A DNA stretch of 64,000 nucleotides from Nitrospirota bacterium (GTDB lineage Bacteria > Nitrospirota > Thermodesulfovibrionia > Thermodesulfovibrionales > Dissulfurispiraceae). A program made the position numbers and the translations under genes. Below, one piece after another: positions 29,245 through 56,860 of this stretch. The notes under the pieces were generated by a model, which did not search any database, had not been told where the DNA came from, and saw only the letters and a program-made list of their open reading frames with translations. Each line of letters starts with the position of its first letter. The stretch's first letter is position 1. The stretch covers positions 256,001-320,000 of the forward strand of contig CAWBMP010000002.1 in assembly GCA_963790025.1 (NCBI GenBank), written 5' to 3'.

Positions 29245-30408
29245 TTAGTATCTGTAGAATTCGGTGCAACGCGGGCAAACGGGAAAGTACTTGTCTCTTT
29301 TCAATCCCTCCCTGTACCTTGTTGCCCTCTCGCAATTCCACATTTGTTTAAAGCCGGTTTCTTTTAAGTTGCCAAAGGCATAATTGATGGATTGGCACGG
29401 CCTGACTGAACCGTCAGGAAACACATATGCGACCATCCAGGGGCTCATGCAGCGCTTCTTGTAGCTTTCAGGCAGAAAGTCGAACAAACCGTAATATCGC
29501 CTTACCTCGTCGTCAGTAAGGTTAGGATACACGGAGATATCGATGCCGGTACGCATGGCTTTGACTTTCTTCAGCATCTGCAGAAGTTTATCAGGGACTA
29601 TATTCGGCAGACGTTCCCGAATGAAACCGGCCCAATCGTGAGCTGAGCATGAGAACCCGTCCTGCATTTTTTTTTCGTGCCTGCAGTATATTTCCCTGCT
29701 GGTGAATATAAGATGATGGAACGTTATAGACGAGGCCCCCATCTCTTCGGCGGAGCTTAGCACTTCATCCAGCCTCTCATAATTTGTTTCGAATATAGAT
29801 GTCGATATATTCACCAGGGGAGTATTAAGCTTTTTTTGTTTCTTAAGCGACTGGATTTTCTTAAAACCCGCCATTGCCCTGTCATATGTTCCTGCAGTGC
29901 CCCGTATTTCGTCATGCACATCTCGCGGGCCATCCAGAGAAAAAATTATCTCGTCAATGCCGGCATCAATAATAGTCTCTGCATTCTCCTTTAACAGGAC
30001 GCCGTTTGTGATCATGTTGCATCTCATTTTCCTTTTTTTCACCATCCGTACCACATCGGGCCAATCCCTGTACAGCAGGGGTTCCCCCCCGAACAAGGTG
30101 ATGTTGGGCTTGAAACTCATTACCTCATCCAGGACCTTTTCAATATCGGCCGGATCAAGCTGTTTCTTCAATTCTTCAGGCGAATAACCGAGGGAGCTTC
30201 CGGCCAGGCCCCACTGGCCGCACATCTTGCACCGCAAATTGCATTTGTAGGTGAGGAACAGCGAGATAGTCTCGGGATACGCGCTCCGGCCCCTGTAGAA
30301 CCTGTAAGTGATGAACGACTTGAGCCTCTTATAAAACACACCTGCGGCATACCCCGGCTGCTTGATGGACTTCTTTATAGCGCGCAGAAGATTTCTCTTC
30401 GGGATCAT
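29245..30408 (-). CDS. Radical SAM protein with SPASM/twitch domain
   Basis: CNLRCKMC, GGEP, SLDG, C-terminal CMSPW...DGSVRPC...CPRC. Confidence 0.92.
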   Translation of the reverse strand: MIPKRNLLRAIKKSIKQPGYAAGVFYKRLKSFITYRFYRGRSAYPETISLFLTYKCNLRCKMCGQWGLAGSSLGYSPEELKKQLDPADIEKVLDEVMSFKPNITLFGGEPLLYRDWPDVVRMVKKRKMRCNMITNGVLLKENAETIIDAGIDEIIFSLDGPRDVHDEIRGTAGTYDRAMAGFKKIQSLKKQKKLNTPLVNISTSIFETNYERLDEVLSSAEEMGASSITFHHLIFTSREIYCRHEKKMQDGFSCSAHDWAGFIRERLPNIVPDKLLQMLKKVKAMRTGIDISVYPNLTDDEVRRYYGLFDFLPESYKKRCMSPWMVAYVFPDGSVRPCQSINYAFGNLKETGFKQMWNCERATRYREGLKRDKYFPVCPRCTEFYRY

Positions 30409-31553
30409 CGTCCGACAGTCCTTGCAATAGTTTCCACAACCCTGGACAGGCTTTTCACCGGTACGTAGTGGTGGACAGGTATCAGGACAAGCCTCTCCGC
30501 CATGTATTCGGCATTGGGGTATTTAGGGCCATCGCCATCACCGTATATCTTGTGTATGGGCCTGTCATAGAGAACTGTGGCCTCGACTCCTGATCTGACA
30601 ATTGCATCTATGACCGTCATGCGTTTCTCCGCATCTTCAACCAGGAACGGGAACTGGTTAAATACGACGTGATGTCCGTAAGGCATTATGGGCAGCCTGA
30701 TGCCGTCGATGCGCTTAAGGGCACCATGCAGCAGGAGGCCCTTGTCCTCTCTGTCCTTGAATATTTCTTCAGCTCTTTTCAGCAGACGGCATCCCAGCGC
30801 GGCCTGGAATTCCGTATAGCGAAAACTGTAAAAGTCTTCGTGAAGTGCAGTATACTTGAAGCCGGCAAGGGCCTGCCTGAAAATCGTGTAAAACCAGGGC
30901 CTGACTGCAAGAGAAAGCCCGCATGCCTTAACGTATAACTTTATTCTCGTTGACAGGCCCGGTATGGGAAGTTGCCGGACCTCATCGCGGATGGCTTGAG
31001 CAAGGGCGTCATTGTCCGTTACAATAAGGCCGCCTGCAACAGTCGAAAGGTTTTTGCCCCTGTTAAAACTAACAAACCCGACATCTCCGAATGTGCCCGT
31101 GAATCTGCGCTCCATGCTCGTGCCGAACGAAGAGGCTGCATCCTCAATTATAAATACACCGTCCGGCCCTCTCAATTCTCCCATGTTCACAGGTATGCCG
31201 AACATATGAACAGGCAGGACAGCAAGAGTATTACGGGTCATTGCGCCGGCTGCCTTTTCAGTATCCATATTGAACGTATCCAGAGAGATGTCGGCCAGCC
31301 TGTATTTAAGCCCCGCCTTTCTTATCGGCAGGACAAGCGAGGGCGCAGTATATGCAGGGAGAATAATATCCTCCCTGTCCGAGAGTTTTTTCAGCGCCTT
31401 TAAGATGAGATAGAATGCAGTTGTCCCTGAATTGACCGCGAGCGAATGCCTTACTTTTAGCATCTTCTTCAGTTCCTCTTCGAAATCACAGGAATTAATG
31501 GTCGCGTCCATTATGTCCCTTATCCTTATAGGTGTTCCGGCCGAAGGTATCAT
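30405..31553 (-). CDS. DegT/DnrJ-family aminotransferase (second copy)
   Basis: NSGTTA, IEDAAS, SFNRGKN; start MIPSAG overlaps the upstream stop (ATGA). Confidence 0.88.
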   Translation of the reverse strand: MIPSAGTPIRIRDIMDATINSCDFEEELKKMLKVRHSLAVNSGTTAFYLILKALKKLSDREDIILPAYTAPSLVLPIRKAGLKYRLADISLDTFNMDTEKAAGAMTRNTLAVLPVHMFGIPVNMGELRGPDGVFIIEDAASSFGTSMERRFTGTFGDVGFVSFNRGKNLSTVAGGLIVTDNDALAQAIRDEVRQLPIPGLSTRIKLYVKACGLSLAVRPWFYTIFRQALAGFKYTALHEDFYSFRYTEFQAALGCRLLKRAEEIFKDREDKGLLLHGALKRIDGIRLPIMPYGHHVVFNQFPFLVEDAEKRMTVIDAIVRSGVEATVLYDRPIHKIYGDGDGPKYPNAEYMAERLVLIPVHHYVPVKSLSRVVETIARTVGR

Positions 31554-32134
31554 TTTTGTCCGGATTCCTTTTCGAATACCATTATATAACCCCAGGCCAG
31601 GTACGAATTGCTGATGCCCACTGCTTTCTTCCGCAGGAGCCTGCACCCGACTGCTCTCATTGCCGTTTCTATCTCTTCAGGGGAATATGAGACTGTAGGG
31701 AAATCTCTCTTTCTCATATGCAGCCAATATTTCAGCCTTAAAACCTGATTCAGTTTATTTCTTATGTCTATCACAATTATCCCTTTATTATGGACAATTC
31801 TTGTCATTTCCCTGAATATCGACCCAAGCTCATCAATGGAGGGAAAGTTAATGAGAGTGTTAAGGCACACTGCGACATCAAACATCCCATCTTCGAACGG
31901 CATCGAAAATATGTCGCCCTGCACGACGTTCATCCCTGCGGATTCCGCCTTATTCAGTTGTTCCTGCGACGCATCAATGCCGATGATCTCTTTGCCGCTA
32001 TATTGTCCAATCGCATTTAACTCTCTTAAAAGGGGGCCTTTGCCGCATGCCACATCTGCAATCCTGCCATTAAACACGCTCAGGACTTTTGCAGCTGTTT
32101 TAATTGTTAATTTCGGCAGATAGTCGCGTATCAT
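31550..32134 (-). CDS. Class I SAM-dependent methyltransferase
   Basis: DVACGKG, GIDAS, GDIFSMPFEDGMFD. Confidence 0.88.
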   Translation of the reverse strand: MIRDYLPKLTIKTAAKVLSVFNGRIADVACGKGPLLRELNAIGQYSGKEIIGIDASQEQLNKAESAGMNVVQGDIFSMPFEDGMFDVAVCLNTLINFPSIDELGSIFREMTRIVHNKGIIVIDIRNKLNQVLRLKYWLHMRKRDFPTVSYSPEEIETAMRAVGCRLLRKKAVGISNSYLAWGYIMVFEKESGQK

Positions 32135-43215: not shown

Positions 43216-43947
43216 TTAGCCGCCAAGCACTTCTTTGCATTTTGTTATAAACAAATTCTGCGAGAGGACATTCTGCTTATAAGTAGATTCAAAAGCATGA
43301 TAGATCAGTCTTCCATATGTTGTGCCTAACCCGAATTTGATTTCATCACCCAAACGATACTTAGGCACGACAACATGCGTAGGCATGATGCAACGGACCG
43401 GTATCCCTTGTTCTCTGCAGGCGATTGTCAATTCACCGGCACAATCGGCGCGCACCGTCGCTTCAAAGGTCGGCTGTCCCGCAGCATAGTATACTTTTGA
43501 CGGTACTACCAAAAAACATGGTCCTGCATAAATTAATGGATTGTGAAACCTCACCGGCGGTTTGCCGCGAAACCACCTGGCTAAACGGACACATCTCTCA
43601 ATTCCCTTTTGAGGCAAACTATATAAACGATAGTTTTCTTCGGCCTTTATCATCTCAATATGATCTGCTTGTTGTGCACATCCAATCAGCATCGGCTTTC
43701 GAGTAACTATATTGAGCAATCGGGGAACGACATCATCTGTTAAAGGAATACAGTCGATATCAACAATAATTATTACATCTACTGAACTAACTTTGCTTCG
43801 AACATAGTCCGTTAAAAATTCTCCATGGCTTAATTCGCTTTTACATTGTTTGATCTGCAAATGGAAATGAGAAAATACTCGTCGCTGCCATTGCAGGATA
43901 TCGTCATTGGCATTATCCCTGTAATACGAAATAATTTCAAACTTCAT
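43216..43947 (-). CDS. Hypothetical protein, possible GT-A fold
   Basis: IIIVDIDCIP DxD motif; translationally coupled within the cluster. Confidence 0.55.
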   Translation of the reverse strand: MKFEIISYYRDNANDDILQWQRRVFSHFHLQIKQCKSELSHGEFLTDYVRSKVSSVDVIIIVDIDCIPLTDDVVPRLLNIVTRKPMLIGCAQQADHIEMIKAEENYRLYSLPQKGIERCVRLARWFRGKPPVRFHNPLIYAGPCFLVVPSKVYYAAGQPTFEATVRADCAGELTIACREQGIPVRCIMPTHVVVPKYRLGDEIKFGLGTTYGRLIYHAFESTYKQNVLSQNLFITKCKEVLGG

Positions 43948-43948
43948 A

Positions 43949-45271
43949 CTATTTGTTCAAAGCGGCGGGTCCGTCACTTGTTACAGTTCTTTCGGGAAAT
44001 GGTCCGGTCCACGAAAAAACCGGTAAAAATGCTCCGTGATCAGCGACCTCCGGTATTCGGACCAGCGTCCGTTGACGTGGGACCATGATATGAAGAATTC
44101 TGGCGCGTTCGACTACATCATATGCCTGTGCCTCATCACCAAGAGTTACCGTCAGGAAATAATCGGCTGGAGCGAGTGCCAATTCGGGAACGCAATTTTC
44201 AAGCCAAAATTCTCCAGGTGAAACATCGAAAATTTCTCCATTAAAGCCACTCCATAGAGTGGCTACTCTCTGGCCTGAAAAAGATTCGATATTAATTCCG
44301 GCAACCAGCCGTTTTAAGGGTCGCGTTGCTTGTATCCGCAACGCAAAATAAACTGTATCACATGAGTCTACATAATTTGTATGCGTTCCATCTCCTTTTT
44401 TAATAACAAGCTCCAAACAAATTGCCAGACCATTACCAATACGATCAGATCTCTTATTCAGTTCGATGTCCATCGAATCAGCCGTACCGCTCAAGTACCT
44501 CTTGATAGATTCAACTACAGCGCCGTCATGCTGAATTTCACCGGATTTTAATAATACTGCTCGCGAACACAGACCTTGTATGGCCCCCATATTATGACTC
44601 ACAAACAATACTGTCCTCCCATCCTTTGATGCCTCCTCCATCTTCCCCATACACTTCTTCTGAAACTGCGCATCGCCGACCGCCAGCACTTCATCAACTA
44701 TCAATATCTCAGATTCCAGGTGAGCTGCAACGGCAAAGGCCAACCTCACATACATGCCCGAAGAATATCTCTTCACCGGCGTATCGAGAAATTTCTCAAT
44801 CTCGGCAAAGTCGACAATCTGATCAAACTTTTTCCTGATTTCGGCCTTTGTCATTCCGAGGATTGCACCGTTGAGGAATATGTTTTCTCTTCCTGTCAAC
44901 TCAGGATGAAACCCCGTTCCCACTTCCAGCAGACTCGCCACTCTACCGGTTATCTCGACCCACCCGTTGGTCGGTTCAGTAATACGGCTGAGGACCTTCA
45001 GCAGTGTCGACTTCCCCGCCCCATTGCGGCCAATGATTCCTACACGGTCGCCTTGCCTGACCTCGAAGGAGACGTCCTTTAAGGCGTAAAATTCTTCCTG
45101 TGTGGCCGGCAGAGTCGATTTTTGAGAAGTTAAAGGTGAAAGCAGTTTTTTGCCGATATTATTTGCTCCTCTGGCTATTACATCGCGCAGGGCCGTATAG
45201 CGCTCCTGCCTCCGGTGGCTGAGGATATATTTCTTGCTCAGGTTTTCTACTTTTATGACAGTGTCACTCAT
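43949..45271 (-). CDS. wzt: Polysaccharide ABC transporter ATPase with C-terminal Wzt_C domain
   Basis: GRNGAGKST, YSSGM..RLAF, DEVLAVGD, VSH, ~170-aa C-terminal extension. Confidence 0.93.
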   Translation of the reverse strand: MSDTVIKVENLSKKYILSHRRQERYTALRDVIARGANNIGKKLLSPLTSQKSTLPATQEEFYALKDVSFEVRQGDRVGIIGRNGAGKSTLLKVLSRITEPTNGWVEITGRVASLLEVGTGFHPELTGRENIFLNGAILGMTKAEIRKKFDQIVDFAEIEKFLDTPVKRYSSGMYVRLAFAVAAHLESEILIVDEVLAVGDAQFQKKCMGKMEEASKDGRTVLFVSHNMGAIQGLCSRAVLLKSGEIQHDGAVVESIKRYLSGTADSMDIELNKRSDRIGNGLAICLELVIKKGDGTHTNYVDSCDTVYFALRIQATRPLKRLVAGINIESFSGQRVATLWSGFNGEIFDVSPGEFWLENCVPELALAPADYFLTVTLGDEAQAYDVVERARILHIMVPRQRTLVRIPEVADHGAFLPVFSWTGPFPERTVTSDGPAALNK

Positions 45272-46095
45272 ATCACGTCCGCAAAGGTCTTCTCGGTCTT
45301 CCTGAAATACCAGACCCCCGTCACCAGAAAAAATACAACAAGACCGCAGGATAGCAGAAAACCGGGCAAATACAGATGCACGCTTCCACCGAGGATCGCC
45401 CAGCGAAAGCCGTCAATGACGCCGACCATCGGATTCAACGAGTAAAGAAGACGCCACTTCTCCGGCACAATGTTGCTTGAAAATCCGACAGGGGAGACAT
45501 AGAGCCCGAACTGTACGATAAACGGGACGATATAACGGAAATCCCTGTACTTGACGTTGAGTGCGGTCAGCCAGAGCCCCATTCCCATGGCCGCGGCAAA
45601 AGCGATTGCGATCAACAAAGGAAGAGTGAAAATCCGCCAGCCGGGAACGAAATGATACCAGACCATGAGCCCTACCAGGATCACAGCAGAGATGAGAAAG
45701 TCCACAAAGCTGGTGATCACCGCGCTGGACGGAATAATCAGACGCGGGAAATAGACTTTCGATATAAGATTGGAATTCCCAATCAGGCTGCTGCTCGATT
45801 CGGACAGGGAGTTGGCGAAGAACTGCCAGGGAAGCATGGCGGCAAAGACCATGATCGGATATGGCAACCCTTCTGACGGGAGCTTTGCCAGTTTACCAAA
45901 AACCACAGTAAACACTACCATGGTCAGAAATGGCCTGAGCAGAGCCCAAACAACGCCCACAGCTGTCTGTTTGTAGCGCACAAGGATATCCCGCCAGGCA
46001 AGAAAAAAGAACAACTCGCGGTAGCGCCAGAGGTCTATCCAGTAATGCTTTTCCGTCAGCCCCGCCTCGATTCTTAACGTTTGTTGTTGGGCCAT
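45268..46095 (-). CDS. wzm: Polysaccharide ABC transporter permease
   Basis: RDILVRYKQT..G..W, KVYFPR, YRDFRY, LNPM, FADVI. Confidence 0.93.
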   Translation of the reverse strand: MAQQQTLRIEAGLTEKHYWIDLWRYRELFFFLAWRDILVRYKQTAVGVVWALLRPFLTMVVFTVVFGKLAKLPSEGLPYPIMVFAAMLPWQFFANSLSESSSSLIGNSNLISKVYFPRLIIPSSAVITSFVDFLISAVILVGLMVWYHFVPGWRIFTLPLLIAIAFAAAMGMGLWLTALNVKYRDFRYIVPFIVQFGLYVSPVGFSSNIVPEKWRLLYSLNPMVGVIDGFRWAILGGSVHLYLPGFLLSCGLVVFFLVTGVWYFRKTEKTFADVI

Positions 46096-46156: not shown

Positions 46157-47512
46157 TCATACATTGCTTGGTTCCAGCGCGGTGTCGCCCTTTCCAATAA
46201 TGGCCTCGCTGGCCACAATCATGGCCATTACCAGCCAGAATGGTTCCATTATTCTTACTATTATGAAGGTATTGGCGCTCAGGGCATGGCCCAGGAGCGC
46301 TGCCAGGCCCACAAGCATGCCGAGGCTGACTCCCCGTATAAGCTCATCAGCTGTGTCCCTATAGACTCTCCATGCAACAATAAAGACCCTGCACACCAGA
46401 TAGAGGAGCGCTGCAAGCCCCACCAGCCCGGTCTCTATAAGTGTTCTGAAATACTGTCCGTCTATGAATCCATAACCCGTTATCCCATAGCCGAAAAAAA
46501 GATGTCGCTTTATATCTTCAAGAACTTGCCTGTAAGCGATGATTCTTGCGGATGCTGACATGTCGAAGTATCGCCCTCCTATCTTCACTTGCTGCGGCGA
46601 TTCAATGGGTATTTTCATGAAGGTTTCAGCGAATCTCTGTTCAACTTTTTGAGGCATTATCATTTCTGCCAAAGATACAACGATAACCAGGACGACAATA
46701 AGGAATACTACTCTTTTACTGAACAAAATTAATGATAGATACATTATCGTAACAGCCATCCATGCGCTCCTTGACAATGTAAACAGGAGGGGTATTACGG
46801 CAAGTGCAATCAAAGCAAGGCATGCTATCTTTACGGTCCGGGATTTAATCGATAAAAAAATGCCTGATAGTATGGAAATAATAAAAACAAGGTATCCTCC
46901 AAGCGTATTTGGCTCACCCCATTTGCTCTCGAATGGCGCAGAGATTCTTTCACCTGAAGGTATCTGAAATATACCATATATTGATACGAGCGCCGCCGTT
47001 ATCAGGAGTGCTATAACGTACCTATTTATCTGTTCCCTGTCGTGAATGCTGTGTACTCCGATGAAAAATATTAGAAAATATTCGATATACTTTGTAACAA
47101 AAAAGATTCCCGATAACAGGTGAACTTTACCGAAGAGCATGCCGAAAGACGTTGATGCAAAACATGCAGTCACATAAAATACAATTGCCTTATTTAAAGG
47201 TGTTTTTCTAAACACTCCGATCTCTTTGTAAACAGCGTTCCTCGCAAGCCATCCAAAAGAGATTATCAGTATCAGGAGATCATCGATTCTTAGTGTTACC
47301 TCCCGCTGCGAAACTGATGCCAACACAGCCTGAGGAGACAGGAGCATTGAAAATATAAGCAAGTAGACAGCAGTTTCGGTTGAAAGAAAAGATATTATTA
47401 GAATAAGGATGCCTGCCGTCAGAATAACGACATGGATTGTGCTAAAGTAATTAATAGCCAAAGCAGCAACTAAAGCAATAGCAGCTATAAACAGTAAAAG
47501 ACCGGGGTTTAT
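46157..47512 (-). CDS. O-antigen ligase/Wzy-family polymerase
   Basis: Multi-TM, GEPNTLGGYL, TLSRSAW, FGYG, LIETGLVG; the frame stays open and hydrophobic upstream of TTG 47461 to ATA 47512. Confidence 0.85.
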   Translation of the reverse strand: MNPGLLLFIAAIALVAALAINYFSTIHVVILTAGILILIISFLSTETAVYLLIFSMLLSPQAVLASVSQREVTLRIDDLLILIISFGWLARNAVYKEIGVFRKTPLNKAIVFYVTACFASTSFGMLFGKVHLLSGIFFVTKYIEYFLIFFIGVHSIHDREQINRYVIALLITAALVSIYGIFQIPSGERISAPFESKWGEPNTLGGYLVFIISILSGIFLSIKSRTVKIACLALIALAVIPLLFTLSRSAWMAVTIMYLSLILFSKRVVFLIVVLVIVVSLAEMIMPQKVEQRFAETFMKIPIESPQQVKIGGRYFDMSASARIIAYRQVLEDIKRHLFFGYGITGYGFIDGQYFRTLIETGLVGLAALLYLVCRVFIVAWRVYRDTADELIRGVSLGMLVGLAALLGHALSANTFIIVRIMEPFWLVMAMIVASEAIIGKGDTALEPSNV

Positions 47513-49728
47513 TTTTTCGCTGATTTTGTCCTCCCTGCAAGACGAAGGATTTTGGCTAAAATATTTTGTTTTTCACTTTCTGCAGACCGTTTTTCCTTGT
47601 AGTATTTATGCATTGCGCTGCTAAAGAAGTCCGGATTTACTTCGGGTTTCAAATGATTAAGTATAATGCCCCGTATTTTTCCTCCGACTTTCTCCAGCAT
47701 TAATGTTGTTCTTTTTAAAGCATTCCTTGAAGTTTTCCCGGCCTCGTATACTACAAGGATCCCATCCACCACGCTCCCGAGTATTACAGCATCGGACACA
47801 GGCAGAACAGGCGGGCTATCAAATATGATTAAATCGTAGTTATCCCCCATTTCCTTAATAAATCCGGGAAACCTGCTGGAATTCAGGAATTCAGAAGGCC
47901 GTGTTACAGGTGCTCCGCTTGTAATTATGCTTATGTTTTCCATCCCGGGAAGGCTCATAAGATCATCGACTTTTATCTCTCCCAGCATAATATCCATTAT
48001 GGTCCTGACCACCTCTTGCCATGTGTAATTACCGAGAATTATATTACTCAGTCCAGGCTCCCTCCCGAGGCCGAAATCCAGATGTATGTTTGGGTTTCTC
48101 AAATCGGCATCGACAATAAGCACCCTCTTCCCTGCCTGTGCCAGAACGATCGCAAGGTTTAAAACAGTAAGAGACTTCCCCTCTCCTCCCGATGAACTCG
48201 TAATCATAAGGCTTTTCAGATTTTTCTCTGCAGTGTCAAAAAAGATGTTTGTGCGCAAGGAGCGATAACACTCGGCAGGGATGGAGTTTGACATAAAATG
48301 GCTGATAAGCCGCAGATATTTCTTTATTTGATCACCCTCTATTTTATATGTCTCCTGTAAAAAATCTGTCACATCAGCCGTATCAAGCTTGGGGATAACA
48401 GCAATAACCGGTATGCCGATAAACAACTCCACATCCTCTATTGTGCCTATGGACGTATCAAGGGACTCTAAAACAAAGACAAATACAATACCGAATATTC
48501 CACCTAGTACCAGCCCGAGCATCGCATTCTGGAATGTTTTCGGCGGGTTAATGCGCTCGGTAGGCTCGGTTGCCCTCTTGATTATGCTGACTTCTTCCAC
48601 TTTTTCGGATTCTTTGATAAGGACTTCCTGATATTTTGTCCTCAAGAGGGAAAAAAGGTCCTGATCTATCTTTATTTCCCTCTCGAGGCGGTTTACTTCC
48701 ATCGCAGTCGGGGGCAGCTCGTAAAGCTTCCCCCTGAGATTGCCCATTGCAGCCAAATTTGATTCCTTCATGCTCTGCACGGTCCTGAGTTTCGCTTGAA
48801 TCTGATACATCAATTCAGTACGGACATTTAATATCTTATCATCCACATCCTTCACCTGGGGATGCGCCGGAGTGAAACCTATTAAAAGGTTGTCTCTTTC
48901 AAGCATTAATTCGCTTAGTCTGGCATTCAACCTTGCTATGATACCCGTGGTCGCATCACCCTCGGTGTAGGGCCTCGGCTTTGCCTGAACAGGGATTGCT
49001 TTTCCTTCCCTTAGAACGTCCAGGTAGTATTCATATTCCTTCATGGCCATATCTAGACGATCCTTCTCCGACTCCATCTTTGAGAATCTGTCCAGTGTGT
49101 TTTTCTCTTCATCTGATATCGATACTATGTCTTTTGCCGTTCTATATGTGTTCAGCGCATCCTCAGCTGTTTTTAATCTTGATTCCACGGTTTTAAGCTG
49201 TTCCTCTATGAATTTCTTTGCTTCGAATATCTGTCTGTTCTTTAAAAGTATATTTTCCTCTTTGTATTTCTCAACAACCAGATTTGCCAGCCTCTCAGCT
49301 TCTTTCGGATCGCTCGAGGATATCGTCACATCTATAATGCTCGCATTGCCCTCCTGCTCAGTCTTGATACGGCCCTGTAGTTCAGAGATGATCTTCCCGT
49401 ACTTCTCGTTGTCGGGAGCAGCATCGCGCGGTATGAGACCATCTGCCTTCGCGACCTTTTCAAGAACAGCGTAGCTCTTGATCATCAATCCAGCCGTGGA
49501 AATAGGATCACCGCTCGAAACTGAAAGGACCTCAACAAAAAGACCCACTGTGCTGGTGGACCTCTCTACCCTTACGCTTGCAGTAGCGTTATAAAGGGCC
49601 TCTTTCTTCTGGACAACAGTTACTGCAACGGTAACTATCTGGAATACCAGCGCAGTGATGACGATGATTCGCCACCTTTTCTTTATTATGCGCCAGTAAT
49701 CCCGTATGCTTAATTCGTATTGCTTCAT
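47509..49728 (-). CDS. wzc: Wzc-type polysaccharide co-polymerase/tyrosine kinase
   Basis: Two TM helices flanking a coiled coil, ECYRSLRTN, GEGKS, DADLRNP, DSPP; short YY tail; likely start MKQYEL. Confidence 0.92.
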   Translation of the reverse strand: MKQYELSIRDYWRIIKKRWRIIVITALVFQIVTVAVTVVQKKEALYNATASVRVERSTSTVGLFVEVLSVSSGDPISTAGLMIKSYAVLEKVAKADGLIPRDAAPDNEKYGKIISELQGRIKTEQEGNASIIDVTISSSDPKEAERLANLVVEKYKEENILLKNRQIFEAKKFIEEQLKTVESRLKTAEDALNTYRTAKDIVSISDEEKNTLDRFSKMESEKDRLDMAMKEYEYYLDVLREGKAIPVQAKPRPYTEGDATTGIIARLNARLSELMLERDNLLIGFTPAHPQVKDVDDKILNVRTELMYQIQAKLRTVQSMKESNLAAMGNLRGKLYELPPTAMEVNRLEREIKIDQDLFSLLRTKYQEVLIKESEKVEEVSIIKRATEPTERINPPKTFQNAMLGLVLGGIFGIVFVFVLESLDTSIGTIEDVELFIGIPVIAVIPKLDTADVTDFLQETYKIEGDQIKKYLRLISHFMSNSIPAECYRSLRTNIFFDTAEKNLKSLMITSSSGGEGKSLTVLNLAIVLAQAGKRVLIVDADLRNPNIHLDFGLGREPGLSNIILGNYTWQEVVRTIMDIMLGEIKVDDLMSLPGMENISIITSGAPVTRPSEFLNSSRFPGFIKEMGDNYDLIIFDSPPVLPVSDAVILGSVVDGILVVYEAGKTSRNALKRTTLMLEKVGGKIRGIILNHLKPEVNPDFFSSAMHKYYKEKRSAESEKQNILAKILRLAGRTKSAKK

Positions 49729-49729
49729 T

Positions 49730-52441
49730 TTACCTGACCGGGGACGGGAATGTTGATTGGTACGTACTATAGGGAGCAAAGGGCAGCGTCAGGAACTGCA
49801 GTGTAGGAGCTAATTCGCCAATGAACACGTTCCAGTTGGCGATCCGTGTTCTGGGCACATATATGATATCGTTCTTTAGCAGGGTTATATCTTTTGTCAG
49901 GTCGCCCTTCTGAAGCATGGTTTTGATATCCGCCGAGAGGATTTGGGGTTTTTCAAGTCCTCCCCTTATTACCCGCACATCTTCAATTACAGCAGAGTCT
50001 TTATAACCCTTTGCCGTCCCTATCGCCTGCAAAAGAGTCATATCCGTAGTTAACGGGTATACCCCCGGATTAGCTACCTCGCCAAAGATAAATATATTTT
50101 GCGAAGAACCGCCGGCGTTGGTCGGGACATGAATTATATCTCCGCTTTCGAGAATGATATCTTTGGATTTATCTCCGCTTAACATTGCCTCATAGAGATT
50201 TATCTTGTGTTTCGTGCCGTCCAGCTTTGTTATCTCTATATTTTCGAGATCCGGAGGTTTAGTAAAGCCTCCAGTCGTAACTATAAATCTGGAAAGTGTA
50301 ATCTTCCCTTTGAGCGGATATATGTCTCCTATCCCCTGCCCCGTACCTTTTTGTATGGCGCCGAGCAGCATGACGGTCCTGCCCTTATATTCTTTAACCG
50401 ACACTTCGACTCTCGGCTCTCTAATATATACTGAAAGAGCATTCTTTAAAGCTGCCTCAGCCTGCCTTGCCGTCATATCACTCATTTTTACATCAACAAG
50501 CCCGAACGTGATAAAGCCGTCCTTTCTTACGACAACGTCATAATTCTTTGCTTCAAAGCCCTGCCACATTTTTATTTCCAGCAAATCCCCGGCAGCAATA
50601 AGGTATTCAGGTACACCGGACTCGCTTGTAAATGTGTTGTTTTTTTCAATTGCAGCATCATTTGCCAGGGCAGTGGATATGCCCATAAAGACCAGTGCGC
50701 AAATGATAATGGAAATGATTATTTTCTTAAACTTGCTTACAGGCTGGAGAACAGCAAGAGATAAAATCTCCCTTAATCGGTAAAGATAGAGCCGGTATGT
50801 CCCTGATGTCGACAGCCTGCTGTATGGGCAGGGCAGCCTTTTATTGACAACCCACGCCGGTGGAAACAGTGTCCTGAAAATAAACGATACTTTTTTTATA
50901 ATGCCCTCATTCATTTCCAGGTGGACCAGATAACTTAATCCAGAGGGGCAATTTCCCCTTGCTGCAATATGATAAAACAACCTTTCTCCGTGAGATTTCT
51001 TATAAGCGCCTAATTCCAGCAATACCCATTCAGGAATATCGATTCCCATATTCAATTTGCTCATGGATAGAATATTATACACAAATCTGTGAACGCTGAA
51101 TTCCCTGCTGGTACTAATAATTTTCCGCCAATCCAGCACAGATTCATATATCGACACAAGGGTTGCAATGTCCAGAAGATAAATAAGCTTGGACGCCGAG
51201 TGGGTCACCCTCATGGCATGTTCGCAAAGGTGGACCAGAAAATGGTGCGGCGACATGCATAATACCCCGGCGCCGGCAATTTTGGAAGGCACGGCATCCT
51301 TCCATATCTGATCCATTTTTACTGCCTTTGCATATGGGGCAGGGATGGAAGAGTTTACAAGATGCCAGTGAATATGAAAAGATGGATGCATGGGATTCCG
51401 GCTCCTGTAGTCACGGGTAGTCAAATAGTTATTCTCGTTATCAACACCATCAAAAAAAGACAGATCTATCGCAGTATATCCCATTTTTTCGAGCACATCG
51501 TTTGCCTTCTCAAGATCATCAGTTTTGAGAAGTAAATCTATGTCGGACATCTCTCTGATTCCTATATCCGGATACACAAGTTCCGCGAGGGCGGCCCCCT
51601 TCATTACTATGACATCTATCTGCCGCTCTCCCAATTCTTTGACAACCCTGTTGAACTCTGAATAAAGTATTGTGTTTCTTGCAGCGGTAACAAAATAATC
51701 CCTTCTCAGCTCTGCGATAAAATTATCAAACGCTCCTGTCTCCGGCTCCTTACTCCTTCCCCCCTGCACTTTTTTTAAAACCGCATATATCTTCTGCGAC
51801 ACCCTGTTATCTCTTGCAATTGTCAAACACTTTGACAGATCTATGAAATCCTTCAGGGCCATTGCAGTATCAGAGGCTGCTGCGGCAGGTGAAAAATCTG
51901 CCTGCAGTAAAGACACGAGAAACATCTCTTCTCTTGATTTTGAAACCATTCCTTCCGGGGCATAAAAACCCTTATAACCTCTTATTCTCTCATAAAGAGC
52001 AGCAGTCAGCGGCGACAGGTAATACGCCAGCTTATTGAATTTTGAAAATATCCCTTTCCCCAGATGAACCAACATTCCGCATTTCGCTACCGCGTATACG
52101 CGCCCAAGAATATCGCTTGCTCTTACAGGGGCGTCAGCAGATGAAAATGTATCGCCTTTAGTCAGGAAGATGAATCCATCGTCACTCTCACTCGAAAGGA
52201 CCTTCGATTCTCCTGAGACCCTTTTTCGGCAGCTATCAACAAGCCGGTGCGCTATCATGTGTTCATCTCTTTTATATAGAATGATATCGCCGGCAGACAA
52301 ATCCTCGGGTTTTACGGGTTCGACGTAGATTGTGTCACCCGATCTTAAAACAGGCGACATGCTACCGCCCGTTACGCGCGTGCTCAGGTTTTTGCCGTCA
52401 GTCAGCAGGCCCTCTGCAAGCTGTAAATGATTTACTTTCAA
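49730..52441 (-). CDS. Fusion of S24/S26 peptidase, NTP_transf_5-type nucleotidyltransferase and Wza-like polysaccharide export/SLBB domains
   Basis: GGSMSPVLRSGD..AHRL..TKGD; MKGAALAELVYPDIGIREMSDIDLL; internal hydrophobic signal ending STALA; YLIAAGD..VRKDGFI, IFGEVANPGVY, NDIIYVP. TTG start at 52441 after GAGGAG. Confidence 0.88.
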   Translation of the reverse strand: MKVNHLQLAEGLLTDGKNLSTRVTGGSMSPVLRSGDTIYVEPVKPEDLSAGDIILYKRDEHMIAHRLVDSCRKRVSGESKVLSSESDDGFIFLTKGDTFSSADAPVRASDILGRVYAVAKCGMLVHLGKGIFSKFNKLAYYLSPLTAALYERIRGYKGFYAPEGMVSKSREEMFLVSLLQADFSPAAAASDTAMALKDFIDLSKCLTIARDNRVSQKIYAVLKKVQGGRSKEPETGAFDNFIAELRRDYFVTAARNTILYSEFNRVVKELGERQIDVIVMKGAALAELVYPDIGIREMSDIDLLLKTDDLEKANDVLEKMGYTAIDLSFFDGVDNENNYLTTRDYRSRNPMHPSFHIHWHLVNSSIPAPYAKAVKMDQIWKDAVPSKIAGAGVLCMSPHHFLVHLCEHAMRVTHSASKLIYLLDIATLVSIYESVLDWRKIISTSREFSVHRFVYNILSMSKLNMGIDIPEWVLLELGAYKKSHGERLFYHIAARGNCPSGLSYLVHLEMNEGIIKKVSFIFRTLFPPAWVVNKRLPCPYSRLSTSGTYRLYLYRLREILSLAVLQPVSKFKKIIISIIICALVFMGISTALANDAAIEKNNTFTSESGVPEYLIAAGDLLEIKMWQGFEAKNYDVVVRKDGFITFGLVDVKMSDMTARQAEAALKNALSVYIREPRVEVSVKEYKGRTVMLLGAIQKGTGQGIGDIYPLKGKITLSRFIVTTGGFTKPPDLENIEITKLDGTKHKINLYEAMLSGDKSKDIILESGDIIHVPTNAGGSSQNIFIFGEVANPGVYPLTTDMTLLQAIGTAKGYKDSAVIEDVRVIRGGLEKPQILSADIKTMLQKGDLTKDITLLKNDIIYVPRTRIANWNVFIGELAPTLQFLTLPFAPYSTYQSTFPSPVR

Positions 52442-53319
52442 AAACTCCTCAAATAGTCGACCACATCTTCGACCGGCAAAAAACATAAATCGAATGAATC
52501 AACGCGCTGTCCGATTTGACCTAAAAATTCTACGGAATATTCCATTCCATCCTTGTTCCAGAAAGGAAGGAATGCATTTTTGATCAGTTCTGAAACCGGT
52601 TTCATCCCGCTGACCGGCGCAGCTATGTTGCATTCTGCATGCCTGACAAAAAAAATCTTATTAATGGGCACGCGTGAATTAACTGCATAATTGGCAGAGC
52701 CGTGCCATGGTGTGCCGTAAGCAAAAAAACCCTCATCAGACTCTGATACAAGCACCCTGTCATCGCTTAAAACTTTGACTCCCTGTTTCCCGTTCCATAA
52801 ATTTGCCATCGTGCTTTTGCCGGCGCCTGACCGGCCGACGAATAAATAACCTTTGCCGTTATCGTCCACACAGGATGAATGAAGCAGTACGCCATTGCCT
52901 CTGCCAAGCAGAATTATTGTCAACACTTCCAGGAAGGGGTATAAAAAATGATCTATGCCGGCCTTGTCAATATAAACAGTGCCGCATGTAAAATCCTCGT
53001 CAAACACCGCAAATAATTGTGGGTGGCTGCCTTTTCTTAAAGGTGGGACAGCCAGGGCAAATTTTGAAATTCCGTAAAGCCCCCATGTTGCGTCCGTCGC
53101 AAAAATTACGTGGTCTTGGACGTGCTCTTGTTGAAAGTCGCGTTTTGATAAACGTCCGGCAATAGATAACCGGCAGATAGAAACCGCGTCTGTGTCTCCT
53201 GAAATAAAAAACGGACCAAGACTTTCATCAAGCCTTATGTCATCCTCACAGGAAATGGAATAACCAATACCTCCGATGCGGATCTTTTGCTCACGCAAAC
53301 TGCTATTTCCAATCAACAT
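52438..53319 (-). CDS. HprK-related kinase (ScmC/lasso-peptide kinase-like)
   Basis: LLHSS, GRSGAGKST, LSDDR, GTPWHG. Confidence 0.85.
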   Translation of the reverse strand: MLIGNSSLREQKIRIGGIGYSISCEDDIRLDESLGPFFISGDTDAVSICRLSIAGRLSKRDFQQEHVQDHVIFATDATWGLYGISKFALAVPPLRKGSHPQLFAVFDEDFTCGTVYIDKAGIDHFLYPFLEVLTIILLGRGNGVLLHSSCVDDNGKGYLFVGRSGAGKSTMANLWNGKQGVKVLSDDRVLVSESDEGFFAYGTPWHGSANYAVNSRVPINKIFFVRHAECNIAAPVSGMKPVSELIKNAFLPFWNKDGMEYSVEFLGQIGQRVDSFDLCFLPVEDVVDYLRSF

Positions 53320-53346: not shown

Positions 53347-53508
53347 TTAGCTGCCCACGCTGCAATTAGCGCAAGTTGCTTTGCTTCTGCACCTTCCCAT
53401 GAACATGTTATTACCGGCTGCAGTTTTGCAATTTGCGAGTATAGCCTCATCGGGAGTTAATTCAACTTTGTGAATTTCAGGCTTCATATAAGGTTTCTTT
53501 TTTTCCAT
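53347..53508 (-). CDS. Putative 53-aa Cys-rich RiPP precursor (not in ORF track)
   Basis: GGAG RBS; MEKKKPYMKPEIHKVELTPDEAILANCKTAAGNNMFMGRCRSKATCANCSVGS*; fills the gap between the radical SAM and kinase genes. Confidence 0.85.
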   Translation of the reverse strand: MEKKKPYMKPEIHKVELTPDEAILANCKTAAGNNMFMGRCRSKATCANCSVGS

Positions 53509-54566
53509 GGCGCCATCTCCTTTTTTATAAGCTCTGATCTTTTATGAGCTATGTCACACAGATAATTTACAGGGCTTTCCCCACTCCTGTCACCTTCAAG
53601 CATCGATATGCCGGGGCAACTGTCACAAAATACGGCATATTCGCACCCCGCACAGTTTTTCGCCCCTGTTAATCTTCTTTCCCTGACAGCTGCAAACTTG
53701 CGGTAGCCTGCCATAAAACTATTATGCCTCAAGTCACAGTCCGGCTCCGGCACGAAGCCGCATATCCGCAATCTGCCCGAGGGATTAATATGGAACCTGC
53801 CTCTTCCCGCGCCGCAGTTAAAAAGATATTCTTCGCTTGCGGGCCCATTAAATTTTTCGTATAAATCTACCCATTCCCTTTTCCGCTCTTGATCGTTCAT
53901 ATCGAGTTCAACAACTTCGTCAGCGGTCACTCTTACATGATACGGTGACTTGGAACCGTCAAGAGTTGGGTTAATTGTGGGATCATATTTGAATTTTAAG
54001 CCGAGGGATCCGGCAAATCGTTTCATTTCCGCAATCTCATGTCTATTGATAGTTGTGACCATGGTCTTCAAAGATAATGGAATTTTATGCCTTACCAACA
54101 GTTGTATCCCATTGATACAGGCGTCATATGAACCGGCCACACCTGTAATTGACTCGTAAGTCTCCCTGCTCGCGCCGTAAAGCGTAATTTCGACTGAAAA
54201 AGGCCTCCACTTATTTAAAAATACCGCGGTGTCTTCGGTAATCAATGTACCGTTGGTAAAGAGTGTGATTATCAAGCCCTTCTTTTTTGCATATTTGTAA
54301 ATGTCATAAAAATCGTCTCTGATCAGAGGTTCGCCGCCTGTGATAAGAAGCCAGAGACATCCCGCGTCTACGATCTCATCCAGAATACGGTGTATCTCTC
54401 CGCAGGTAAGTTCATTTGCCCCCGAATTGTCTCTTATATAACAGTGGTTGCAGGTAAGATTGCAGTGTGTGGTCAGTTCTATTGTTCCGTCAAGCGGTAT
54501 GTCTTTTTCAATAGCTGCTTCATGGAGCCGCTCGCTAAATTTCCAATAATCGATGTGTTGCATCAT
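53484..54566 (-). CDS. Radical SAM/SPASM peptide maturase
   Basis: CNLTCNHC, GGEP, SPASM CGAG...IC...CAGC...CDSCPG...C; coupled to PqqD. Confidence 0.92.
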   Translation of the reverse strand: MMQHIDYWKFSERLHEAAIEKDIPLDGTIELTTHCNLTCNHCYIRDNSGANELTCGEIHRILDEIVDAGCLWLLITGGEPLIRDDFYDIYKYAKKKGLIITLFTNGTLITEDTAVFLNKWRPFSVEITLYGASRETYESITGVAGSYDACINGIQLLVRHKIPLSLKTMVTTINRHEIAEMKRFAGSLGLKFKYDPTINPTLDGSKSPYHVRVTADEVVELDMNDQERKREWVDLYEKFNGPASEEYLFNCGAGRGRFHINPSGRLRICGFVPEPDCDLRHNSFMAGYRKFAAVRERRLTGAKNCAGCEYAVFCDSCPGISMLEGDRSGESPVNYLCDIAHKRSELIKKEMAPWKKRNLI

Positions 54567-54850
54567 GCCTCTTCCAGAAATTTAATGCCGATCAACTCCC
54601 CGATAAATTCAGAGACATCCGCTGCTGCAGTATCAGCAGAGACCTCATATTCATCTTCAATTGCCTTGCACAGCACAGCAATACTCCTGTTGCCGTCCAG
54701 AAGTTCCCAAATCCTTGTGCCTACTTCATTCAAGGTGTATACACTTGACAAATCTCCAGCATTGTTTACTATCGGGACCAGCACGCACTCATCCCCGATC
54801 CTTCTGAATACGACACCCTGGTTCTTTTTGAAGACAGCATGCGGCATCAT
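54563..54850 (-). CDS. PqqD-family RiPP recognition element
   Basis: RRIGDECVLVP..YTLNEVGTRIWELLDG..EYEV..DVSEFI. Confidence 0.92.
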   Translation of the reverse strand: MMPHAVFKKNQGVVFRRIGDECVLVPIVNNAGDLSSVYTLNEVGTRIWELLDGNRSIAVLCKAIEDEYEVSADTAAADVSEFIGELIGIKFLEEA

Positions 54851-56070
54851 TACTCGTTCTTCCCGAGGCTTTGCAATTCATCGATCTCATCGGGAAAACA
54901 TGCCGCTTTTATCTGTAAAACATGGTCCTTCATAAGATCGACGGTTCTTGGTTCATGTATCTTTTGACCGTAGACATCAAAGACTATTTCTATCACCGGC
55001 CGGAGGGGCGCGAGCCTGTTTACGGATATGACCTTTGCGATCTCTTTTGAATTGAGTTTTACATAACTACCAAGCGGAAAGCCTGAAAACTCGTTTACAA
55101 GTACCTTTAGGATGCTGCGGGGAAATTTCTCTTTCGAGGTCATGATTATATGTTTTATCGCGTCGAACGGCAGGTATCTGTCTCTGAACGGCCTTACTTG
55201 CAGCGTTGCGGCGTATATATCGGAGATGCCCACAATACTCGCATTATTTAATATCTCATCGTTCTTAAGCCCGTTGGGATACCCGGACCCATCGCGTCTC
55301 TCATGGGTCTGGTATGCAGATTGGGCAATATCACCGTATCTCGCTTTAAGTTCCTTCAGTCCTTTCAGTATGTTGTATCCTTGTTCAGTGTGCTTTTTCA
55401 TTAAAGCCAATTCCGCGGAAGTTAGCTTCCCCGGCTTTTTGATGATCTCGGGGGAAACCATAAGCATGCCCACATCCTGAAGAAATGTCAGCATTGCCAG
55501 GGCCTCCAGTTCCTCGTCGATCATTTTAAGTCCAATTCCTATTCTGACAGCAATTATTGCGGTGTTCAGGGAATGGATTACAAGCTGTATAACTACATTG
55601 TCGTCTTTTACTCCCTTGTATATGAGCAGTATCCACGGATTGCTGTCCTTTTGCATGCATGAGGCGAAGTTTTTTGCATACGGTACCAGAGGCTCGACAG
55701 AGAAATCCCTGCCTTCCTTAATAAGCTGGAAAACATTAAAGAGGCTTTCCTTTGCGCCGTTGAATAATTCTTTTACGTGCCTGCAGACATCCGGCCTTTC
55801 AGGGACATACTGTCCTTCAATCTTCCTGAAAGCGAGGTCCTTTTTCTCATCCGCGGTCCTGCCTGGTCCATCTGAAATACTAGAGGCCGGCGTCTTCTCA
55901 ATAGCCTTGAATGAGAGGTCTTTTTTTTCAGGAGAGCTCGCACTTGTTACCTCTGCAGTATGGGCTGCGCTATCCTCAAGATTTTTGAATGAAATTCCAT
56001 TTCCACTGGAAGACGTTTTTTTTATGCTCCCAGATTTATCAGTCATCCGAATACCCGTGTTTCCTCTCAT
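54850..56070 (-). CDS. HD-GYP domain protein with degenerate HD
   Basis: HSLNTA, LQDVG instead of LHDIG, KPGKLT, HERRDGSGYPNGL, PLGSYVKL; start may be at MTDKSG. Confidence 0.85.
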   Translation of the reverse strand: MRGNTGIRMTDKSGSIKKTSSSGNGISFKNLEDSAAHTAEVTSASSPEKKDLSFKAIEKTPASSISDGPGRTADEKKDLAFRKIEGQYVPERPDVCRHVKELFNGAKESLFNVFQLIKEGRDFSVEPLVPYAKNFASCMQKDSNPWILLIYKGVKDDNVVIQLVIHSLNTAIIAVRIGIGLKMIDEELEALAMLTFLQDVGMLMVSPEIIKKPGKLTSAELALMKKHTEQGYNILKGLKELKARYGDIAQSAYQTHERRDGSGYPNGLKNDEILNNASIVGISDIYAATLQVRPFRDRYLPFDAIKHIIMTSKEKFPRSILKVLVNEFSGFPLGSYVKLNSKEIAKVISVNRLAPLRPVIEIVFDVYGQKIHEPRTVDLMKDHVLQIKAACFPDEIDELQSLGKNE

Positions 56071-56860
56071 CGATAAAAACTTTGTTCACAACGTCTTTGT
56101 CCACCCAGAGTTTATTTTCAGAGAAGCCTGTAAGCAGAGAAAGGTCGCATATCTGGTTTACCCTCCGCGGCACCCCCTTTGTATGCTGGTGTATCAGTTC
56201 TATAGCATCCATTGTAAATATCGGGTCATTGGTCCTTCCCGCCTTCTTCAATCTGTAGAATATATAATTTTTTGTATCGGGCAGAGAAAGGTGCCTCAAA
56301 TGGAATTTTATGGTAAGTCTCTGCTCAAGCGGGAGTATGCGGTGGACTGTTTTCCTCAACTCAGGCTGGCCTATAAGCACAAGTGTAATAAGGAACCTGC
56401 CATCCAGCTGAAAATTCAGAAGCAGCCTCATCTCCTCCAGGATTCTCACATCCGTAATCAGATGCGCCTCGTCTACTATCAGGACCGTTCTTTTCCCGTT
56501 GTTATAGTTCTTGACTAATCGATCATTTATCTCGTGTAACAGGTCCAGTTTGCCGGTAGATTGGGTCTTAACATCCAACCGGAATAAAATCTCCCTCAAA
56601 AAATCATTGAGATCAAGTGTAGGGTTGGAAACTATTCCGACATTGATACCTCTTTCCGTCAGTCTTTTTTCCACAACCTTTATAATTGTCGTCTTTCCCG
56701 TCCCTACCTCGCCTGTAAACAAAACACCGCCTTTATCATATGTTATGCCATAGAATATCCTTGCTCTTGCTTCCTCATGAACAACAGACGGAAAATAAGT
56801 GTCAGGCGTGCTTACATTCTGGAATGGTAATGTCGCTAAACCCCAATAACTTTCGTACAC
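56039..56860 (-). CDS. ExeA/GspA-family AAA ATPase
   Basis: YESYWGL..PF, GEVGTGKTT, VDEAH, LIGQPEL, GVPRRVNQIC. Confidence 0.92.
   Translation of the reverse strand: MYESYWGLATLPFQNVSTPDTYFPSVVHEEARARIFYGITYDKGGVLFTGEVGTGKTTIIKVVEKRLTERGINVGIVSNPTLDLNDFLREILFRLDVKTQSTGKLDLLHEINDRLVKNYNNGKRTVLIVDEAHLITDVRILEEMRLLLNFQLDGRFLITLVLIGQPELRKTVHRILPLEQRLTIKFHLRHLSLPDTKNYIFYRLKKAGRTNDPIFTMDAIELIHQHTKGVPRRVNQICDLSLLTGFSENKLWVDKDVVNKVFIDERKHGYSDD

Follow-up and report, generated by a model that had tools for sequence, protein, structure and literature searches.

The linear polyphosphorylated peptide (LPP) clusters of Bacillota, which encode the proteins LppA, LppB, LppK, LppS, LppN and LppD, process small phosphorylated peptides (Popov et al., Nat Commun 2026, PMC13381572). 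LppS is a SipW-like signal peptidase I (S29, H68, D93) that was shown by experiment to remove the leader only in the presence of LppB, a recognition element (RRE) for peptides that are made on the ribosome and modified after translation (RiPPs), and an HprK-like LPP kinase puts several phosphates on one serine; the clusters lie in capsule loci, and the authors state that their biological role is unknown and this co-location unexplained. A homologous pair of enzymes occurs in lasso peptide clusters. For pseudomycoidin the two act one after the other: the kinase PsmK phosphorylates the C-terminal serine and PsmN, which needs D134 and D136 and was modelled on ANT(2'') (5cfs/4xje), is required for the addition of one or two hexoses to that phosphate (PMC6993621). 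Paeninodin-type clusters likewise encode a kinase (PsmK/PadeK) and a nucleotidyltransferase (NTase), and fusions of the NTase to the B2 pathway protein have been reported (PMC6993621, PMC8498205). This article describes a gene of an uncultured Nitrospirota bacterium (Thermodesulfovibrionia, Dissulfurispiraceae) in which a LppS-like peptidase and a LppN-like NTase are joined, through an internal segment that resembles a Sec signal peptide, to a Wza-family polysaccharide exporter (OPX). The window, i.e., the whole stretch of DNA analyzed, comprises 64,000 nucleotides (nt) of contig CAWBMP010000002.1 (assembly GCA_963790025.1, positions 256,001 to 320,000).

The gene is an uninterrupted minus-strand open reading frame (ORF) that extends from ATG 52486 or TTG 52441 to TAA at 49732-49730 and encodes 918 or 903 amino acids (aa). 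Its product consists, in this order, of a SipW/Sec11-type S26 peptidase, a PF14907 NTase, a hydrophobic segment and an exporter with Poly_export and SLBB domains. Residues are numbered throughout on the 918-aa form, although the 903-aa form is the likelier one. The features of the gene are as follows:

49730..52486 (-), peptidase, NTase, internal signal and OPX parts in a single ORF of 918 aa; the relatives start in alignment with residue 16

52094..52435 (-), SipW/Sec11-type (S26B) peptidase domain, LppS-like, residues 18-131 (TIGR02228, Foldseek)

50747..51934 (-), nucleotidyltransferase module, residues 185-580; PF14907 match at residues 215-479 (51050-51844)

50663..50734 (-), internal Sec-type signal, residues 585-608; predicted cut A608/N609 (50663/50662)

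49733..50662 (-), OPX (Wza-family) part, residues 609-918; Poly_export 626-698, two SLBB units to 877, conserved 41-residue tail

The true start is probably TTG 52441. This codon shares TTGA with the stop of the upstream HprK-like gene (52438-52441), GAGGAG lies 3 nt 5' of it and the first residue of the relatives aligns with it, which together make the 903-aa product the likelier. At the other end, the ATG of the Wzc gene comes 1 nt past the TAA of the fusion (49728-49732); judging from this layout, the gene is translationally coupled at both ends. The identity of the parts was obtained by profile searches and, independently, by structure comparison, as an AlphaFold2 (AF2) model of the protein (mean predicted local distance difference test score, pLDDT, 66.8; predicted template modelling score 0.53) compared with the PDB by Foldseek returned all three. 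A first-pass annotation of this DNA had described one uninterrupted ORF of about 900 aa that combines a peptidase, a nucleotidyltransferase and a Wza-like domain, and both statements hold: no stop or frameshift separates the parts.

The three-part architecture is conserved. A full-length word-indexed protein search gave 41 proteins including the window's own. Twenty further proteins contain the three parts (853-919 aa, 48-57% identity, 94-98% coverage), P0023 (693 aa) contains NTase and OPX only, P0024-26 (558-584 aa) contain peptidase and NTase only, and 16 of the 41 match the OPX part alone. In DNA, one frame runs across both halves in the loci L013, L014, L016, L037, L038 and L039 (L002 gave the same figures as L016 and was counted once), and L015 represents the NTase-OPX form. 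The fused loci come from Thermodesulfovibrionia, Nitrospirota or 'Deltaproteobacteria' metagenome-assembled genomes; among 41 genomes of the genome's own relatives a full-length match occurs in two (G000, G004), so the locus is accessory even within the genus. As the frame stays open over the junction at about 50% divergence, a sequencing error does not account for it, and the fusion is almost certainly real. The search for the same domain architecture that the first-pass annotation had proposed was thus rewarded by 20 further proteins and six DNA loci; the finding it had named as fatal to the idea, namely separate genes in all close relatives, was not encountered, even if P0024-26 and L040 do lack the OPX part. 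A description of the fusion was not found in the literature searched, with the supplementary data of PMC13381572, which possibly list fused forms, outside that search.

The origin of the fusion was addressed by comparison with distant lineages. In Aminicenantes, Desulfobacteria and other Thermodesulfobacteriota the NTase is about 40% identical, and the peptidase (about 160 aa) and the NTase (about 395 aa) are separate neighboring genes in different frames; L031 and L034 carry free-standing OPX and Wzc genes 2-3 kb further on. In a quick maximum-likelihood tree of the NTase (40 rows, P0020 and P0002 left out, midpoint root), with support given by the Shimodaira-Hasegawa-like approximate likelihood ratio test (SH-aLRT), a single clade of 28 rows (SH-aLRT 90) contains every OPX-fused form, and the free-standing NTases of other phyla lie outside it. 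The four close forms that lack OPX branch within this fused group: P0024 with P0005 (95), P0025 and L040 with P0023 (96), and P0026 with P0003 (83). The simplest reading would be one fusion event with a few later losses or splits, a reading kept provisional by the midpoint rooting and the quick method.

Directly after the stop of the free-standing NTase in L040 (L040:4005-4118, also in L041 and L045) there is a perfect 36-bp tandem duplicate together with a partly palindromic 27-bp repeat, and the tail of the L040 NTase still resembles the residues that precede the signal in the fused forms. These repeats may mark the site at which the OPX part was lost.

The segment that joins the NTase to the exporter shows the layout of a Sec signal: the n-region KFKK, the core IIISIIICALVFMGI and the c-region STALA, followed by N-D (residues 585-610 were quoted in the first-pass annotation). 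It has a positive n-region, a hydrophobic core and small residues at -3 and -1, the latter evaluated by a hand rule, and it lies at residue 585 of 918 instead of at the N-terminus. In 22 of the 22 OPX-fused proteins this segment is the highest 19-residue hydrophobic window (Kyte-Doolittle 1.54-2.71; P0014 and P0021 have a near-equal rival window), and in the AF2 model it forms a helix at 584-607. The eight residues preceding the core carry a net charge of +2 to +4 in 21 of 22 rows (P0003 has 0), and at least one site obeying the -3/-1 rule is present in every OPX-fused row. Ala608, at -1, is invariant (22/22), and no other residue from R570 to G624, these two aside, is kept in all rows; at -3, 17 rows have A, S, T, I, V or G and five have Asn. 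No cysteine occurs at or after the c-region, that is, there is no lipobox, which indicates a signal for signal peptidase I; elsewhere the genome encodes a canonical LepB (TIGR02227, 177.7 bits). Export by the twin-arginine translocation (Tat) route was considered and rejected, since KFKK has no twin arginine and the RRLRK of some relatives is outside the Tat consensus.

The relationship of the segment to known signals is evident from free-standing exporters. The closest of these are P0047 (336 aa, 46% identity), P0054 and P0060. Their first residue falls opposite position 585 or 586 of the fusion in the alignment, and all three start with an ordinary N-terminal signal peptide that lacks a lipobox; a fourth, P0056, has no signal at its start and may be truncated. 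On the basis of this alignment the buried segment is a captured Sec signal and not a chance hydrophobic patch. In-frame ATG, GTG or TTG codons between codons 480 and 625 are limited to 489, 503, 525 and 601; the 59 codons preceding K585 contain no start codon, and M601 lies inside the hydrophobic core. The absence of such codons between 525 and 601 implies that in this organism the OPX domain is made only as part of the long protein. The first-pass annotation had recognized a complete Sec-like signal with an AxA site and had noted that no in-frame ATG, GTG or TTG immediately precedes it. The second remark was correct, and the first is borne out by the n/h/c layout, the A-L-A of the c-region, the invariant -1 alanine and the aligned true signals.

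From these features we infer a topology in which the enzymes remain at the cytoplasmic face, the exporter domain crosses the membrane by Sec and signal peptidase I probably frees the exporter; a rough probability of 0.6 is assigned to this reading as a whole. The first-pass annotation had proposed the same arrangement, with tethered enzymes, a periplasmic Wza-like part and a possible release by signal peptidase I, and the comparisons made here support it. Residues 585-608 would derive from the Sec signal of an ancestral OPX gene that stood alone, inserting N-in/C-out as they leave the ribosome and delivering the C-terminal 310-residue Wza-family domain to the periplasm, where it would work with the Wzc protein encoded 1 nt downstream. 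The orientation itself, N-in/C-out with an exported OPX domain, is very probable. The N-terminal 580 residues are expected to stay inside, because there is no other hydrophobic segment and the free-standing NTase homologs, which stop at about the position of residue 580, have neither a hydrophobic tail nor a membrane segment. Signal peptidase I would most probably cut after Ala608 and release the exporter domain, leaving the peptidase-NTase pair fixed by its tail in the inner membrane where export takes place, with a 1:1 ratio to the exporter. Whether cleaved or anchored, the pair would be held on the cytoplasmic side of the inner membrane next to Wzc and the exporter, and its ratio to them would be fixed.

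Several observations weigh against this reading, some of them in favor of particular alternatives. The segment might be a permanent signal-anchor, in which case a bitopic protein of about 100 kDa would physically link the tailoring enzymes of the cytoplasm to the export channel of the periplasm. Its uncharged stretch of at least 20 residues, with a core Kyte-Doolittle value of 2.71, is enough for such an anchor, and the Poly_export domain, in Wza the membrane-proximal ring, begins only about 17 residues beyond the predicted cut. The exporter part has no Pfam Wza_C helix and resembles the periplasmic class 3 in this respect (PMC9603273), and the class-3 protein WzaB oligomerises only with an N-terminal membrane attachment, which fits an uncleaved tether (PMC12819527). 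In five of the 22 rows the -3 position holds an unfavorable Asn, and these rows have another candidate site three residues upstream. A plain anchor, on the other hand, has no need of a -1 alanine that is kept in 22 of 22 proteins while the remaining segment varies freely; the cores of the relatives are short (12-14 residues) and followed by Pro or Ser, as in cleavable signals, and the homologous segment of the free-standing OPX proteins is an ordinary N-terminal signal. Given the N-in/C-out topology, cleavage by signal peptidase I after Ala608 is considered likely, and the permanent anchor somewhat unlikely.

The separate translation of the OPX domain from an internal start, the read-through fusion being a by-product of a lost stop between adjacent genes, would be a quite different explanation of the same frame. 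Of the ten OPX-fused relatives whose DNA was read, six have an in-frame ATG (L013, L014, L037, L016) or TTG (L038, L039) shortly before the n-region, at a distance of a few codons, which makes separate initiation possible in them, and the free-standing homologs begin exactly there. No convincing ribosome-binding site precedes the internal codons of these six relatives, which may be a relic of the old OPX start, and the corresponding codon of the window is CTC (Leu). The window itself offers no ATG, GTG or TTG between codons 525 and 601, its sole Shine-Dalgarno-like AGGGAG abuts an ATT codon with zero spacing, and the frame has been kept open at about 50% divergence, all of which make this explanation highly improbable. 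It is scarcely conceivable that an artefact of assembly or sequencing merged two neighboring genes through a missed stop or an indel: although the junction (50570-50759) is not covered by any of the six public short contigs (151-175 nt) that match 50300-51300 and derive from three DNA runs in which this DNA has small shares, these contigs show 0-1 differences and no indels in the flanks, and the same continuous frame, with sequence conserved to either side of the junction, is shared by 20 other proteins of several sources and by six DNA loci. A search of public runs found no RNA run with this DNA. The reading in which the signal is cleaved and the enzymes stay inside also has to accommodate that close relatives without OPX exist (P0024-26; L040, L041, L045), so that the fusion is not obligatory; that the AF2 model is only moderate, with a pLDDT of about 52-60 in the junction helix; that all three matches of the HprK-like protein are below the curated cut-offs, a P-loop being present; and that LppN, annotated as an 'uncharacterised NTP transferase', is conserved and had no detectable activity in the published system, where the authors suspect a need for a partner whose gene lies outside the core cluster (PMC13381572).

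The peptidase module matches the model for signal peptidase I of the archaeal type (TIGR02228, 60.5 bits against a cut-off of 51.85) and also Peptidase_S24 at residues 18-84 (25 bits); Foldseek matched it to SipA (4n31) and to human SEC11C (7p2q), with whose catalytic residues its Ser and His line up. Ser42, His80, Asp112 and Asp118 are at least 90% conserved in the alignment of the relatives. A Kyte-Doolittle scan detected no hydrophobic segment before residue 585, hence no N-terminal membrane anchor on the peptidase, which fits a RiPP leader peptidase such as LppS (catalytic Ser at residue 29) and not a housekeeping signal peptidase. A topology with the peptidase outside, achieved by a reverse anchor at about residues 146-172, was rejected: this helix has a Kyte-Doolittle value of at most 1.47 and a summed insertion energy of about +5.5 to +7.3 kcal/mol (Hessa scale).

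The NTase module was assigned to PF14907 (NTP_transf_5) with 157.2 bits against a cut-off of 31.2. K296, G297, D315 and D317 are invariant in the alignment, in keeping with the G-G/S ... DxD motif, and the structural neighbors of the module are ANT(2'')-Ia (4xje/5cfs) and MenT toxins. By analogy with PsmN, this NTase may add a hexose to a phosphoserine of the peptide.

The OPX module was matched by PF02563 (52.8 bits), PF22461 (64.7 bits) and also PF10531 (47.8 bits), each of which exceeds its cut-off, with SLBB_2 at residues 796-877, and its structure resembles that of Wza (2j58, E 9e-19) and of the class-3 protein WzaB (9n9a, E 3.6e-10). Wza_C (PF18412) gave no match even at E<=10 in the last 66 or 335 residues, and for this reason the OPX part resembles class 3 by the Pfam criteria of PMC9603273, with a divergent Wza_C helix being possible; the tail helices of the AF2 model (886-899 and 906-912) have a pLDDT below 50. 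The module shares Poly_export, two SLBB units and a gene position directly upstream of a Wzc-type gene with Wza and WzaB. In contrast to these, it is neither stand-alone nor a lipoprotein, the lipoprotein signal found in most class 1 and about half of class 3 OPX proteins being absent, and its signal is internal, behind 580 cytoplasmic residues. With residues 584-918 as an exhaustive HMMER query 17,136 relatives were retrieved, and among the best 150 OPX representatives an NTase-OPX junction is present only in P0013 (889 aa) and in the fragment P0167.

Proteins of 650-1090 aa in which FG-GAP repeats, often with OmpA, precede the exporter (P0057-P0183) are among the nearest relatives of this OPX domain. 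They are N-terminally extended as the fusion is and are the most frequent long forms (26 of 32 extended proteins scanned among the best 150 representatives), but their extensions are FG-GAP repeats and OmpA; PF14907 or the peptidase occurs in 0 of the 32. A second, free-standing OPX homolog is encoded elsewhere in the genome (G000:C4:597744-598415) and is 28% identical to residues 623-851.

The fusion gene stands sixth in a compact operon on the minus strand, in which it is preceded by genes for an AAA_22 ATPase, an HD-GYP-type protein, a PqqD protein, a radical S-adenosylmethionine (SAM) enzyme (followed by an unannotated 53-aa ORF) and an HprK-like protein, and followed by those for a Wzc-type and a Wzy_C protein, then for an ABC-2/Wzt pair and for a series of glycosyltransferases. 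The features next to the fusion are:

56039-56860 (-), AAA_22 ATPase, resembling the XrtA/PEP-CTERM-associated ATPase (TIGR03015, 235 bits, below the cut-off of 324.5)

54850-56070 (-), HD-GYP-type HD_5 protein, with AAA_22 the conserved head of the cassette

54563..54850 (-), PqqD-family RiPP recognition element (PqqD, 66 bits)

53484..54566 (-), radical SAM enzyme related to SPASM-type peptide maturases (Radical_SAM, 75 bits; SPASM families below cut-offs)

53347..53508 (-), candidate precursor peptide, 53 aa long or, if the second Met is the start, 46 aa, a small unannotated ORF between the radical SAM and HprK-like genes

52438..53319 (-), HprK-like P-loop kinase (Hpr_kinase_C, E 2.8e-4; HprK_rel_B, E 1.7e-7; ScmC, E 1.4e-7)

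47509..49728 (-), Wzc-type co-polymerase/tyrosine autokinase (Wzz, GNVR, AAA_31; TIGR01007, 150 bits, above cut-off), likely ATG 49728

46157..47461 (-), Wzy_C/O-antigen-ligase-like membrane protein (Wzy_C, 43 bits), downstream of Wzc

The 53-aa ORF is a probable RiPP precursor. Of the related loci examined, 10 of 10 have a counterpart in this position, and in the alignment of 11 peptides (A2) a leader motif, Y-x-K-P-x-(I/V/L), is kept, with Y7 at least 90% conserved and I, V or L two residues past the Pro in 11 of 11. A conserved A-V-L-x-A-C-K stretch follows the motif, and there are further conserved Cys residues; K9, P10, C27, K28 and C40 are invariant, G52 and S53 are at least 90% conserved, and nine of the 11 peptides end in Gly-Ser (L028 ends in GT, and L015 differs). 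The peptide matched no NCBIfam family at E<=1, and a binding test of the S26 domain (residues 1-180, alignment A1) with the precursor (A2) scored 0.00 in both of its uncontrolled runs, a value that speaks neither for nor against binding. The PqqD protein matched, among PDB sequences, TbiB1 (5v1u, E 4.7e-5) and LppB (9x8z_B, E 1.3e-4). In the proposed pathway, the PqqD element would bind the YxxPxI leader of the precursor, the radical SAM enzyme would probably cross-link its cysteines and the HprK-like kinase would probably phosphorylate a serine, most likely the conserved C-terminal one. The first 580 or so residues of the fusion would then be two cytoplasmic peptide-tailoring enzymes that act on this small peptide, encoded two genes upstream.

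The cassette formed by PqqD, radical SAM enzyme, peptide, HprK-like protein, S24/S26 peptidase and PF14907 recurs across phyla. An OPX gene was found within the fetched stretch in seven of ten cassette loci scanned; two of the remaining three (L019, L023) have other exopolysaccharide-type genes (AAA_22, low-molecular-weight phosphatase), which were not detected in the third (L028). HD_5 and AAA_22 are both near the cassette in L013, L014, L016, L019 and L031, and one of them is in L023, L025 and L034, while the order Wzc, Wzy_C is also seen in L014, L015 and L016.

Other fusions and insertions were observed in these cassettes. In some, a GNAT acetyltransferase and the S24/S26 peptidase form one protein (L031:7965-8996, L025:7935-8987), and in others a PRMT-like methyltransferase is inserted ahead of the peptidase (L023:6844-7980, L028:2620-3837); toxin-antitoxin-like genes (PemK-like, HicA-like) lie between peptidase and NTase or between PqqD and radical SAM enzyme (L023:8552-9141; L031:4993-5534). 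At the far end of the glycosyltransferase run of the window a second radical SAM/SPASM protein is encoded beside a DegT-type aminotransferase (29245-31646, minus strand), and an ORF of 243 aa that separates the Wzt-type ABC ATPase from the glycosyltransferases (43216-43947, minus strand) had no Pfam or NCBIfam match.

The operon context, with PqqD, radical SAM enzyme, Cys-rich precursor and HprK-like kinase, allows the enzymes of the fusion to be matched with LppS and LppN as described in PMC13381572. The first-pass annotation had called them peptide-processing enzymes; this label was right and can be sharpened to counterparts of LppS and of LppN/PsmN. The core set of the LPP clusters is complete here, as a SpI-like peptidase, a stand-alone RRE, a kinase like HprK (sub-threshold) and an NTP transferase are all encoded. 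The catalytic spacing (S27/H65/D97 from the TTG start) is comparable to that of LppS (S29/H68/D93), the precursor contains the RRE-binding leader motif [Y/W]xxPx[L/V/I], the PqqD protein matches LppB itself, and the LPP clusters are likewise embedded in polysaccharide loci. The locus differs from them in that peptidase and NTase are fused to each other and, via a signal peptide, to an OPX exporter, in the addition of a radical SAM/SPASM-like enzyme and a Cys-rich core, and in its host, a diderm Nitrospirota and not a member of Bacillota. The conserved Ser is C-terminal here, whereas LppA is phosphorylated on core Ser3 (PMC13381572). An exporter of the MsbA-like type (LppD; ABC_membrane) was not found among the ORFs of the window between 29 and 64 kb, which contain only the ABC-2/Wzt pair (43949-46095); MsbA-like exporters do lie beside the cassette in L023 and L025.

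The lasso clusters of the pseudomycoidin/paeninodin type share with this locus the pair of an HprK-like kinase and an 'uncharacterised NTase', and the phosphorylation of a C-terminal Ser reported there makes the Gly-Ser end of the precursor suggestive. The DxD pair that PsmN needs is invariant here, and the same structural neighbors (5cfs/4xje) were obtained; we infer from these neighbors and from the wording of the paper that PsmN would belong to PF14907 (PMC6993621). A lasso cyclase and a B2 protease, in contrast, are absent from this locus.

An internal signal peptide preceded by a cytoplasmic part has few counterparts in bacteria. The FbcH cytochrome b-c1 precursor of Bradyrhizobium is one bacterial precedent, for which a literature search by gene name returned no paper. 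In the hepatitis C virus polyprotein the cytoplasmic core ends in the signal peptide of the next part, E1, and a signal peptidase splits the two and leaves the first part anchored (PMC5402940). The arrangement predicted here is alike, except that the endoplasmic reticulum is used by the virus and that cleavage of the bacterial protein is predicted.

The conservative view of the coupling is that co-localization and co-expression would allow a peptide pathway to regulate or decorate the polysaccharide. A bolder view, which is speculative and quite unlikely, is that peptide and polysaccharide end in one molecule, the exported slime being a conjugate of ribosomal peptide and phosphoglycan. The membrane-held NTase would then use the phosphoserine of the cross-linked peptide as acceptor of the first sugar or sugars, as PsmN does with hexoses, or would join the peptide to a lipid-linked glycan; the peptide would be primer, cap or anchor of the polymer and the OPX domain of the same polypeptide its dedicated exit. 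If true, this would explain two published puzzles, the position of LPP-type clusters within capsule loci and the inactivity of LppN when outside partners are missing.

The conserved fusion of LppS-like and LppN-like enzymes to an exporter is Rosetta-stone evidence that the peptide chemistry serves polysaccharide export or assembly, and it makes a physical connection, in uncultured Nitrospirota, between slime export and a phosphopeptide pathway about which little is understood. In addition, it would be an example from bacteria, occurring in nature, of an internal Sec signal preceded by a cytoplasmic enzyme module, an arrangement well known in viral polyproteins and rare in bacteria.

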